From Candidatus Hydrogenedentota bacterium (lineage in GTDB: Bacteria; Hydrogenedentota; Hydrogenedentia; Hydrogenedentales; SLHB01), in assembly GCA_045863295.1 (NCBI GenBank), contig BTWA01000003.1, positions 64,001 through 128,000 on the forward strand: a DNA stretch of 64,000 nt, read 5' to 3'. Numbering within the stretch: the first letter of the stretch is position 1; each line of letters begins with the position of its first letter. Below the pieces are notes generated by a model. The model saw nothing but the letters and a program-made list of their open reading frames with translations. It ran no database searches and had not been told where the DNA came from. Below are positions 89-3,270 of this stretch, piece by piece. A program made the position numbers and the translations under genes.

Positions 89-736
89 CTACGTCGACTG
101 TGAAGCGTCCCGCACAGCAAGGTGCATTTCCCTCATCAGCTCCCCCAAAGCGCCTGCGCCGGGATCGTCGCTCTGAGCCAACTGTTCCAATACGCGCGCC
201 TGGTCTTCGGAAGAGCGGTTCTGGCCAAGTTTAAACTTGCCTTCAACTCGCGTAATGTCCATCGTGAAACCGACTATGGCTTTCATCAGCTTGTCTTTGA
301 ATTCCCGAGGCAATTCACCGTCCCACGAATTGGTGAATCCGGATTCATACTGACGCACGGTCCTGTCAATGAGTGCCTCGAGCAATGTGGCGTCGTCAAT
401 GACCTGCGGTTTGCCGTACATATGGACGACGGCATAGTTCCATGTGGGAACCGCCAGCGAAGCTGCATACCACCGAGGCGAGATGTACCCATGAGGACCA
501 TGGAAGATGACCAACGACTCCTGTGCGCCTTCAAAAGCCTTCCAGTGCGGATTCGCACGCGCCATATGTCCATGTAGAATCCCATGAGCCCCATCCCGCG
601 GCTCAAACAACACGGGAATATGCGTGGCGAAGGGCGCACCATCCACGATGCTGACCATTGTGGCAAAACTATGCTTGACAACAAACGCCTCAAGAACTCC
701 AGACGCAGTCATTGCATACGACTGAGGAACGTACAT
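89..736 (-). CDS. paiB: FMN-binding negative transcriptional regulator (PaiB family)
   Basis: MYVP start, ATHIP, GHMARANPHW, GYISPRWY, VPTWNY and KFKLGQN motifs. ATG at 736 with upstream AAAGG preferred over the longer ORF. Confidence 0.85.
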   Translation of the reverse strand: MYVPQSYAMTASGVLEAFVVKHSFATMVSIVDGAPFATHIPVLFEPRDGAHGILHGHMARANPHWKAFEGAQESLVIFHGPHGYISPRWYAASLAVPTWNYAVVHMYGKPQVIDDATLLEALIDRTVRQYESGFTNSWDGELPREFKDKLMKAIVGFTMDITRVEGKFKLGQNRSSEDQARVLEQLAQSDDPGAGALGELMREMHLAVRDASQST

Positions 737-1031
737 CGTTGCATCGCCTTTCCATAATGATGCCATCGCAACTCGCGATCCCCGGCCGGGCACCTACAGT
801 TAACGGAACCAACCAACTGTATTTTGTTTCACAAGTACGACGGAAGAAACGGCCTGACAGGAAACTGGGCTTAGTGCAGAGCGTCCCCAAGTCGTTGATG
901 GATACGCTTTCAGCGCCTAAACGTGTATCCCATTATGAAAGGCGGGAGTTATGCACATCCAAGTAAACTGACATGGAAAAGTCGTCGAAACCACCGTGCA
1001 AAGTGGGTAGTCAAATGACATGAAGGACGGG

Positions 1032-1067
1032 AAAAAAAGAAAGCGGGAAGCACAGAGCGCTTCCCGC
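1032..1067 (-). terminator. Rho-independent terminator after micropeptide 1
   Basis: Minus strand reads GCGGGAAGC-gctctgt-GCTTCCCGC followed by TTTCTTTTTTT. Confidence 0.85.
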
Positions 1068-1091
1068 CACCATTAGCGAACGGATGAACCG

Positions 1092-1190
1092 TTAGAGAAC
1101 CTGATACAGGACGATGAGAGCCACCACCCACCAGATCCACCAGAACGGATTCAGGAACCACCACCAGAACGCTTTACGGGGAGTCGTCAT
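1092..1190 (-). CDS. Trp-rich micropeptide 1 (32 aa, MTTPRKAFWWWFLNPFWWIWWVVALIVLYQVL)
   Basis: Hand-translated. AAGGAGGT RBS before ATG, TAA stop, terminator downstream and sigma70-like promoter upstream. Below the ORF-track size cutoff. Confidence 0.75.
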   Translation of the reverse strand: MTTPRKAFWWWFLNPFWWIWWVVALIVLYQVL

Positions 1191-1376
1191 TTCGGAAACC
1201 TCCTTCCTATTTTGGATTTTCCCAGCTACTCCTTTACCCCATCTCCCCCTAGGAGACAAGGCACAGGAGATGTTGCCTTGTGAACAGGTGAACTAACGCC
1301 ACCTCATTGAAACCCAGCCCATTGCCCCCAAACCACAGGATCAGGTATTTCAACCCTACCCTGTGTGGCAGGCCAG

Positions 1377-1405
1377 ACTATAGCACAAACCTCACGCGGA
1401 TACAA
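1377..1405 (-). promoter_or_regulatory. Sigma70-like promoter for micropeptide 1
   Basis: TTGTAT-17 nt-TATAGT with extended -10 TG on the minus strand. Confidence 0.65.
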
Positions 1406-1495
1406 GAATTTTTTTGACCTCGCACCCCGCGCGAATCTGTGCTAACCACTACAATACCCTCGGATTACCGCAACGTTTCACGTTTGCCAAAGGTA

Positions 1496-1527
1496 GCGGA
1501 AACCGGCTTTCGATCGCCCACTTCCGC
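1496..1527 (-). terminator. Hairpin downstream of micropeptide 2 (possible terminator)
   Basis: Imperfect stem GCGGAAGTGGGC...GCCGGTTTCCGC with only a weak U tract. Confidence 0.4.
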
Positions 1528-1543
1528 ACGAACCGGTTCACCA

Positions 1544-1642
1544 TCAAACGATGGTGGACGCATTAACCCAGAAATTCCAACCTGCGCTCAAAAATGTGTA
1601 GATGAACACAGGCACCCACCAAAACAGCAGGAACAGCAACAT
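1544..1642 (-). CDS. Trp-rich micropeptide 2 (32 aa, MLLFLLFWWVPVFIYTFLSAGWNFWVNASTIV)
   Basis: Hand-translated. AAAAGGAGG RBS, ATG start, TGA stop, WW at residues 8-9 as in its neighbours. Confidence 0.7.
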   Translation of the reverse strand: MLLFLLFWWVPVFIYTFLSAGWNFWVNASTIV

Positions 1643-1840
1643 TGTCAAGTCCTCCTTTTGTCACAAGATGTCTAAGCCAAACCCCCATGAACCTCGGCCG
1701 TTGCTTGCGCAATTCGGAGTGGGAGAAATAATAGTGCAGTTACGCCTAGATTCTCCTTCCGCTTCCGAAAACGGACAAGGCATGTGTTTCGAATGCGCCG
1801 CAGCCGTCAGCCGCAGCGTGCCGTGAGGCCTGAAAACTTC

Positions 1841-1918
1841 TTAGAACGGGTAAAACGAAGCGTAAATCACGTTCCACAGAAGCCACAGCGGCCACCAGAG
1901 AATCAACCAAAACAACAT
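1841..1918 (-). CDS. Trp-rich micropeptide 3 (25 aa, MLFWLILWWPLWLLWNVIYASFYPF)
   Basis: Hand-translated. AAAGGAGGT RBS, ATG start, TAA stop, own promoter. Confidence 0.75.
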   Translation of the reverse strand: MLFWLILWWPLWLLWNVIYASFYPF

Positions 1919-1981
1919 ACCTCGAACCTCCTTTCTTGTGTCATGTTTCTCACTTTCCGCTCTGTGCGGGTTTGTGCGGAG

Positions 1982-2010
1982 AGTATAGCATAGAGGATCA
2001 GAAGATACAA
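1982..2010 (-). promoter_or_regulatory. Sigma70-like promoter for micropeptide 3
   Basis: TTGTAT-17 nt-TATACT with extended -10 TG. Confidence 0.65.
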
Positions 2011-2087
2011 CGGTTTATGCACCCTGACCCACCCACACTCCAAACAAACCCACGCGAAATTGAAACCAAGCCACGCTAGTGTGCGTC

Positions 2088-2121
2088 AAACAGAAAAGGC
2101 GGACGTTCGCACGCCCGCCTT
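2088..2121 (-). terminator. Rho-independent terminator after micropeptide 4
   Basis: AAGGCGGGCGT-gcga-ACGTCCGCCTT followed by TTCTGTTT; GNRA loop. Confidence 0.8.
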
Positions 2122-2151
2122 GTGCTTACAACACGGTAACGAACGGCTGGC

Positions 2152-2244
2152 TCACGGCACGATAAGATGAGACACGTCCAAGCCAGCACCGAAAATAAAC
2201 CACCAACCCAGCAGAAACCACCAGAAAATCCACAAAAGAATCAT
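2152..2244 (-). CDS. Trp-rich micropeptide 4 (30 aa, MILLWIFWWFLLGWWFIFGAGLDVSHLIVP)
   Basis: Hand-translated. AAAGGAGGT RBS, ATG start, TGA stop, promoter upstream and terminator downstream. Confidence 0.75.
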   Translation of the reverse strand: MILLWIFWWFLLGWWFIFGAGLDVSHLIVP

Positions 2245-2304
2245 ATCGGCGAACCTCCTTTCGCATTCGGTCGTTTACGATGCCCCTAAGCATACGTGTT
2301 TCGC

Positions 2305-2333
2305 ACTCTAACATAGCGGATCTGGATTGTCAA
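2305..2333 (-). promoter_or_regulatory. Sigma70-like promoter for micropeptide 4
   Basis: TTGACA-17 nt-TAGAGT with extended -10 TG. Confidence 0.7.
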
Positions 2334-2408: not shown

Positions 2409-2981
2409 TCAATTAATCTCCACACCCACCTTCGCCAACGAACGGCGAAGATCGTCCGGTGTGAACGGCTTCGTCAATGCCTGGGAGGCACCGCTCTCAG
2501 TCGCACGGCTCGCAAGATCCGGCTCGCCAAGCCGTACCGTCGCTATAATCCGAACCGGCGATGCGTCCGCCAGTTCTTTGATACGGCGGCACAAATCCAG
2601 ACTGTCTACACCCGGAAGATGCATGTCCAAAAATATGACATCGGGCTTGAACGTGCAGACAAGTCGGCCCGCCTCGAAGGCATCCGGCGCAACCTCGATT
2701 TCAAAAGGATGTTGCGCACGCTCTAAAAAACGCTGCACCACCGCGCACACCGTCTTCTCAGGCTCGACCACCAAAATCCGAGTACCGTCACTGCTCAGCT
2801 CGCCGTGAATCGGAATGCTGTTTTCCCGCAAAAAACGGATCAGGTCCTCGCGGCGAATCCGCCGATGACCGCCCGGAGTCTTAAACACATGAATCCGGCC
2901 CGCCTCGGCCCACTTCCGTATCGTATCCGCCGTAACGTGACAATACTTCGCAACTTCAGACGTACTATATGAATCTTTCAT
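2409..2981 (-). CDS. Response regulator: N-terminal excisionase/MerR-like HTH plus receiver domain
   Basis: HTH region YSTSEVAKYCHVTADTIRKW...KTPGGHRRI; REC motifs PDVIFLDMHLPG and LTKPF. Confidence 0.85.
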   Translation of the reverse strand: MKDSYSTSEVAKYCHVTADTIRKWAEAGRIHVFKTPGGHRRIRREDLIRFLRENSIPIHGELSSDGTRILVVEPEKTVCAVVQRFLERAQHPFEIEVAPDAFEAGRLVCTFKPDVIFLDMHLPGVDSLDLCRRIKELADASPVRIIATVRLGEPDLASRATESGASQALTKPFTPDDLRRSLAKVGVEIN

Positions 2982-3063
2982 TGCCCACCGTAAAAGCATC
3001 GAAATGCAAAATGCGAGCCGGGGTCAGCCCCACAAGCTGTGCGGACTCCCCCCACTCTTGCCC

Positions 3064-3111: not shown

Positions 3112-3187
3112 TGGAGCTGGATCGGGGAATCGAACCCCGGACCTCATCATTACGAGTGATGCGCTCTACCGACTGAGCTAATCCAGC
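3112..3187 (-). tRNA. tRNA-Thr(CGT)
   Basis: 76-nt cloverleaf with TAGCTCAG..GGTAGAGC D arm, anticodon loop CT-CGT-AA, GTTCGATTC T loop and encoded CCA. Confidence 0.95.
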
Positions 3188-3194
3188 ATAAGAA

Positions 3195-3270
<76 letters not shown>

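Follow-up and report, generated by a model that had tools for sequence, protein, structure and literature searches.

Introduction

The cytochrome b6f complex has four single-helix subunits of about 30 residues (PetG, PetL, PetM and PetN), and CydX and AcrZ are other small membrane partners. Aureocin A70, with its four peptides of about 30 amino acids (aa), and the staphylococcal PSM-alpha operon are leaderless multi-peptide systems, the known leaderless bacteriocins being cationic amphipathic peptides with dedicated transporter or immunity genes at their side. Here we describe an array of four micro-genes, A to D, that code for tryptophan (Trp)-rich hydrophobic peptides similar in appearance to the streptococcal SHP and ComS and the enterococcal pheromone precursors, some ComS carrying a WW pair. 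The array is located in a Candidatus Hydrogenedentota genome (GenBank assembly GCA_045863295.1), in a stretch of 64,000 nt (contig BTWA01000003.1, positions 64,001 to 128,000 of the forward strand) that we call the window and to which all coordinates refer. The four genes are real: their sequence and order are conserved, they are under purifying selection, and the unit formed by B and C is represented in RNA libraries. They make up a new, lineage-restricted and unannotated family within the bacterial small hydrophobic proteins, which is set apart by its extreme Trp content and by the conservation of four types as a set.

The comparison with the systems already described gives likenesses and differences in every case. 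Like Ibs/Sib and Ldr/Rdl of enterobacteria, A-D are tiny hydrophobic peptides with a single predicted helix, arranged in tandem intergenic units with their own promoter and terminator, overlooked by annotation and of narrow taxonomic range; unlike them, they have no detectable antisense RNA gene, they are four unlike types whose order is fixed, where those arrays repeat a single module, and there is no sequence homology. As in the case of PetG/L/M/N, CydX and AcrZ, several conserved one-helix peptides of about 30 aa co-occur in genomes, but those are encoded with or near their complex, whereas A-D come without an identified partner complex, D duplicates freely and B can stand alone. Aureocin A70 and PSM-alpha also have several leaderless peptides of 20-35 aa side by side, some of them Trp-rich. 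Theirs are however cationic or amphipathic and derive from one operon with a dedicated exporter, whereas A-D are nearly uncharged (0-5.7 % charged residues), are made from separate units and have no transporter nearby, the neighbouring genes being a sulfatase, glnA, a paiB-like gene and a regulator with helix-turn-helix (HTH) and receiver (REC) domains. Finally, ComS/XIP and SHP are hydrophobic peptides of 17-32 aa encoded next to an Rgg/ComR regulator, with a conserved C-terminus and, in some ComS, WW. The regulator beside A differs in being HTH_17 plus Response_reg and not RNPP/Rgg, it predates A, and it is the whole peptide that is conserved.

Results

Four Trp-rich genes in three transcription units

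The initial annotation had proposed four minus-strand open reading frames (ORFs) between 1032 and 2333, each with a ribosome-binding site (RBS) at the correct spacing. All of them were found (Table 1), with GGAGG 8-9 nt before the ATG in A, B, C and D, and the WW at residues 8-9 that had been noticed in three of the peptides is present in A, B and C. We have scanned the whole 6.3 Mb genome, as that annotation suggested, and detected 1164 ORFs of 15-50 aa with GGAGG in front of them. Only 16 contain at least four Trp, and the hydrophobic ones among these are A-D, all inside 1.2 kb. Trp makes up 11-19 % of the residues pooled per type, with up to six in 20 residues, and aromatic residues as a whole 25-42 %. 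The RBSs, predicted to be 30-70 % unpaired, match as many as 10 nt of the common form of the 16S rRNA tail, which is assumed here for this organism too.

The three promoters with a -35 box, a 17 nt spacer and a TG-extended -10 box that had been described are indeed present, one each in front of A, B and D on the minus strand. C, which trails B, lacks a promoter, so that the proposal of one transcription unit per gene holds for A, B and D and fails for C, leaving three units and not four. The pattern TTGnnn-N14-TGnTATAnT has 20 sites in the 6.3 Mb, two of which are the B and D promoters; the promoter of A, with TAGAGT as -10, falls outside this pattern. When positions 1000-2450 were scanned with relaxed criteria, the minus strand gave three promoter-like sites and the plus strand none. 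A and D are each followed by a terminator, at 2121-2096 and 1068-1042 respectively, and the third hairpin reported by the annotation is a GC hairpin without T-run after B; a terminator-like site at 1619-1598 was disregarded since it falls within ORF C. The shared CC(G)GTTCG motif shortly after the stop codons, on the contrary, is a product of chance: CCGTTCG is found 19 times in the window against 20.0 expected, and the alignment of unit A shows no such conserved block. The same design was seen elsewhere in the genome (G000:C9, around 72856, plus strand), with TTGTTG-N14-TGCTATAGT followed by GAAAGGAGG and ATG.

TABLE 1. Coordinates of the A-D genes, their signals and the two flanking genes in the window.
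Feature	Position	Strand	Description
HTH_17 + receiver-domain regulator	2409..2999	minus	Upstream neighbour; Pfam PF12728, PF00072
Unit A promoter	2305..2333	minus	TTGACA, 17 nt, TG-extended TAGAGT
A	2244-2152	minus	30 aa, 5 Trp; MILLWIFWWFLLGWWFIFGAGLDVSHLIVP; GGAGG at 2258-2254
Unit A intrinsic terminator	2086..2121	minus	GGCGGG..CCCGCC stem and T-run, kept in relatives
Unit B(+C) promoter	1982..2010	minus	TTGTAT, 17 nt, TGcTATACT
B	1918-1841	minus	25 aa, 5 Trp; MLFWLILWWPLWLLWNVIYASFYPF
B-C spacer hairpin	1714..1768	minus	TCGGAAGCGGAAGGAGA ... TTTCTCCCACTCCGA; holds an RBS look-alike
C	1642-1544	minus	32 aa, 4 Trp; MLLFLLFWWVPVFIYTFLSAGWNFWVNASTIV; without own promoter
Unit D promoter P1	1377..1405	minus	TTGTAT, 17 nt, TGcTATAGT; TTGTAT..TGTGCTATAGT
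Second promoter-like block before D	~1317-1352	minus	TTGAAA.., in tandem after P1
D	1190-1092	minus	32 aa, 7 Trp; MTTPRKAFWWWFLNPFWWIWWVVALIVLYQVL; preceded by a leader of ~185 nt
Unit D intrinsic terminator	1033..1068	minus	12-pair stem, 8 GC pairs, then TTCTTTTTTT
PaiB-like FMN-binding protein	89..793	minus	Downstream neighbour; Pfam PF04299, E 1.4e-54

Distribution, gene order and selection

We have searched 135 genomes of the phylum in six frames, first with a profile in which the four peptides were pooled and afterwards with one profile per type (hidden Markov models, HMMs). At least one type was present in 16 genomes, from uncultured sludge bacteria that belong to five genera of one family, and there was no A-D match in the other 14 families. 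The genes had been thought to conserve composition rather than sequence. Instead, the comparison shows four distinct orthologous types and not loose copies of one composition, each type having motifs of its own. A is found as a single copy in 12 genomes, with the motif W..WW...W..VG[AG]GL.LP.LI and the hallmark G-[AG]-G-L-x-L-P. B was detected in 12 genomes as well. It has the C-terminal motif FWW..W..W[NV]..Y...YPF, which ends in Y-x3-Y-P-F, and the 11 sequences compared have two Trp, two tyrosines (Tyr) and the terminal Pro-Phe without variation. C (FWW......Y.L.VF..GGWN, with GGWN as hallmark) has orthologues in nine genomes, and further ones were recognised by eye. D is present in 11 genomes, with one to three HMM matches in each and up to four copies by eye, and combines an optional MKGxPK start with WW.WW, an aliphatic run and a C-terminal LY[QE]VL.

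The order B-C-D is kept wherever the array occurs (13 genomes, three to six units per array), and B is alone in three genomes of one genus. In two genera, including the one studied here, B-C-D comes directly behind A. In two others it lies between a sulfatase gene and the glutamine synthetase gene glnA (L051, L112-L116). In a third genus besides these two, that of genome G120, the array is behind A, with an ankyrin gene after it and glnA next. Since the contexts differ in this way, the array has moved as a block. The glnA gene of the present genome (L175; G000:C68) has no array in the approximately 135 nt before the next downstream gene.

Across genera the promoters, RBSs and terminators are conserved in the alignments while the spacers have diverged. 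The ratio of nonsynonymous to synonymous substitutions (dN/dS), pooled over pairs that are not independent and therefore descriptive, was 0.28 in A, 0.20 both in B and in the long forms of D, and 0.25 in the short forms of D. These values, for which the annotation had asked, indicate purifying selection. For C, with saturated synonymous sites, the corresponding ratio of differences per site (pN/pS) was 0.45. In all five sets the substitutions by codon position followed the order 3 > 1 > 2.

In a wider scan, a DNA pattern of the B type gave 53 matches over 185,579 species genomes, 12 true and 41 by chance. Of the true records, ten bear Hydrogenedentota, Hydrogenedentes or Hydrogenedentales in their titles, another is called "uncultured bacterium", and the last Nitrospiraceae. 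On the contig of the last one, from an "uncultured Nitrospiraceae" metagenome-assembled genome (MAG) (L129; copy in G117, L090), B, C and D are equal to those of a Hydrogenedentota MAG but for one residue in two D peptides, and the public record was probably mis-binned. A hydrophobic-looking match in an Ignavibacteriales contig was rejected, as neither an RBS nor a start codon precedes it. A pattern of the D type gave three matches in metagenome contigs, two true and one by chance.

Searches for described families

The annotation had taken the peptides for an undescribed family, and this stands: they are conserved across related genera, under purifying selection and without match to described families. 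With the threshold at E 1, none of the four peptides had a family in Pfam or NCBIfam; PADLOC gave no match for six peptides, PHROGs a single match with E 0.85, and the Protein Data Bank (PDB) none at E up to 10. Likewise, D had no match in phage and plasmid records (tblastn) and no usable one in the ESM Atlas, and its profile retrieved, from 1.84 billion representative proteins, only two, both from A-D arrays themselves. The four peptides of the window are absent from a collection of 15 billion proteins, where a few peptides of the relatives appear either unnamed or as "hypothetical protein". A literature search found no description of such peptides in its listings.

The B/C unit and its RNA

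The promoter block of B, cGTTGTaTC..TGTGCTATACT, is kept in 8 of 9 aligned genomes, and four of the five genera share a conserved promoter, 5' untranslated region (UTR) and RBS. The one genome without the block is G120, of the fifth genus (g45), in which B is closely behind A. Contigs from RNA libraries of three studies, all unstranded, match 1556-2097 without a mismatch and are exact over B, and one of them (1556-1850) bridges B and C. Because C has no promoter and this contig spans both genes, C probably rides on the B transcript. No RNA contigs were found on units A and D or on the flanking paiB-like and regulator genes, which we do not take as silence. The contigs from runs X9 and X10 reach as far as 2094-2097, where the A terminator has its foot, and one contig folds back at 1905.

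The hairpin between B and C is present in all nine sequences of one alignment, covering three genera, and is absent from the genomes of genus g9, which have no C. Its motif is unmatched in G120, although C is present there, and has one occurrence in the genome studied. There are 16 predicted pairs, one of them compensatory, and no Rfam family covers it. In the form TCGGAAGCGGAAGGAGA...TTTCTCCC..TCCGA (window; L051, L112-L116, L081, L090, L110) one arm is an RBS look-alike. The other arm may pair with the true RBS of C and so act as a translational switch. A short ORF after the look-alike is not conserved, and missing in the window. We have also discarded a fold-back between the start of B and the 3' UTR, attractive in the window but not conserved (z from -2.6 to +1.7 in nine genomes). 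The prediction of a complex between B and C of G120 (score 0.05, mark 0.32) was uninformative either way.

Units D and A and their neighbours

D is preceded by two promoter-like blocks. P1 is found in 6 of 7 aligned genomes, G120 being the one without it. In the second block TTG is invariant and four relatives have TTGAAA or TTGAAT plus TACAAT (TTGAAA-17-TACAAT), the block being weaker in the window and in the remaining relatives. In relatives D is followed by one to three extra copies, including forms of 17-21 aa. On one metagenome contig (L173/L174) the D-D' pair occurs twice in tandem, the copies differing by a few substitutions, which shows a recent change in copy number. The AlphaFold2 model of D (mean pLDDT 85) has a helix at residues 4-12, a break at N-P and a second helix at 15-31.

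Unit A keeps promoter, RBS and terminator across genera in its alignment, the promoter with the form TTGACA-17-TGnTAGACT in eight genomes of four genera. The synteny with both flanking genes, which the annotation wanted checked, was recovered in part: A is always directly downstream of the HTH_17-REC gene, and the paiB-like gene adjoins the array in this genus only. The adjacency of A to the regulator is probably positional, since the regulator is widespread (30 of 40 relatives have a DNA match to it), and at 17 of the 19 loci examined in relatives no small hydrophobic ORF adjoins it. The regulator also belongs to a conserved block with tRNA-Phe(GAA) and tRNA-Thr(CGT) (window 3112-3270 plus 2409-2999), and in many relatives of the order the tRNA pair and the regulator match side by side on one contig, so that this block is much older than the micro-gene array.

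Discussion

Our leading reading, which we hold tentatively, is that A-D are aromatic micro-proteins, produced in abundance, which span the producer's own membrane once and have their function there. It derives from the combination of high-output signals with aromatic helices almost devoid of charge. Each unit seems geared to high output, as the promoters are strong, conserved and near-consensus with an extended -10, the RBSs near-perfect and the terminators strong; the two tandem blocks before D would add to this design. Once translated, each peptide would form a helix of some 20 residues and insert directly into the producer's cytoplasmic membrane. The invariant Trp and Tyr of B would form a continuous stripe along one face of the helix (10 of 11 sequences, related to one another, have Trp/Tyr on a single face), and in D a Trp cluster occupies the N-terminal half and an aliphatic run the C-terminal one. 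As abundant proteolipid-like components they might associate with themselves or bind a membrane complex through their aromatic faces, and their role would not be that of silenced toxins or exported products. A bolder version, which we think unlikely, makes A-D a new kind of ribosomally made and abundant aromatic proteolipid, in which helices with Trp/Tyr stripes stack by their aromatic faces into a lineage-specific membrane assembly (a channel-like or charge-conducting bundle, or a coat that armours the membrane) unlike any described small-protein system.

Several observations weigh against this picture of abundant resident micro-proteins. The high expression is read from sequence motifs, and the RNA support is limited to B/C, where carry-over of DNA is a formal possibility. 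The RNA cover extends about 120 nt upstream of the predicted start of B, up to 2097, which the model leaves unexplained; the RNA over 1975-2097 could come from an upstream start, processed read-through or antisense RNA. Since B is alone in three genomes, an obligate assembly of the four parts is unlikely, and the recent tandem duplication of D is more like a toxin or conflict gene than like the fixed subunits of a complex.

An explanation that we judge unlikely is a type I toxin-like array, i.e., self-poisoning membrane peptides that an antitoxin RNA or the folding of the mRNA normally keeps in check and that depolarise the membrane on release. The analogy was drawn by the initial annotation and stands as far as peptide size, membrane segment and tandem intergenic layout are concerned. 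Indeed, the peptides have 17-45 aa, a single membrane segment and C-termini that are aromatic or polar (YPF, LYQVL, GGWN..), and with their tandem position in intergenic DNA, missed by annotation, they fit the search criteria given in PMC2887945 (fewer than 70 aa, a membrane segment, a polar or aromatic C-terminus and a tandem intergenic location away from the flanking genes). The helical model of D, its leader of ~185 nt, its recent duplication and the RNA upstream of B, if antisense, go in the same direction. What the analogy seems to lack is the antitoxin, a small RNA, antisense or adjacent, that would pair with the toxin mRNA: there was no plus-strand promoter-like site in 1000-2450, no conserved element on the opposite strand, and no locus of complementary sequence in the rest of the genome (best match E 7). 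All the conserved non-coding blocks identified fit sense promoters, RBSs, terminators or the B-C hairpin, and the pairing of the start region with the 3' UTR is not conserved in the nine genomes. Besides, known toxin families in Pfam and NCBIfam show no homology, and four unlike types, single-copy and in fixed order across genera, differ from the repetition of whole modules.

Exported peptides, in which a hydrophobic N-terminus would work as a signal and a short C-terminal piece would be released as signal or antagonist, are in our view quite unlikely. Candidate pieces are easily named (the tail of A after G-[AG]-G, the YPF end of B, the LYQVL end of D), and the most conserved motifs are at or near the C-termini; A has small residues before a variable tail and is always beside a regulator gene, and the long forms of D begin with a basic MKGxPK that resembles a signal peptide. 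However, conservation affects the whole peptide, all Trp positions included, and not the tail alone, no transporter or protease was found beside any array, and the regulator is of the phospho-receiver type, not peptide-binding, and widespread in relatives without A. The share of charged residues, only 0-5.7 %, also argues against export.

A role as precursors of ribosomally synthesised and post-translationally modified peptides (RiPPs), with Trp cross-linked or prenylated by enzymes encoded elsewhere, is very improbable. The peptides are short and conserved, and Trp- or Tyr-rich cores are common in ribosomally made, modified peptides, but they are hydrophobic from the first residue, with no recognisable leader, and there is no modifying enzyme next to the array in the four contexts seen (regulator/paiB, sulfatase/glnA, PEP-CTERM protein and ankyrin protein). 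Finally, that the ORFs are leader peptides sensing charged tRNA-Trp, as their four to seven Trp codons, in some followed by a terminator, might suggest, is largely refuted, because after each terminator comes a new promoter and not a regulated gene, the downstream gene varies between genera and the non-Trp positions, which can change freely in attenuator leaders of the trpL and tnaC type, are conserved under purifying selection. A small share of our confidence is kept for explanations that we have not considered.

No part of the bacterial proteome is less charted than its small membrane proteins, most of which are known from a few model species. The array provides a clean case in an uncultured phylum, in which unannotated genes of 17-45 codons are backed by comparative evidence and by RNA-library contigs, and illustrates how standard gene callers miss the class, to the point that a collection of 15 billion proteins lacks the four peptides of the window. 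The extreme Trp content, with four unlike types together, makes them attractive for the biophysics of Trp-rich membrane helices, and raises the question of what an abundant aromatic proteolipid would do in the cell.

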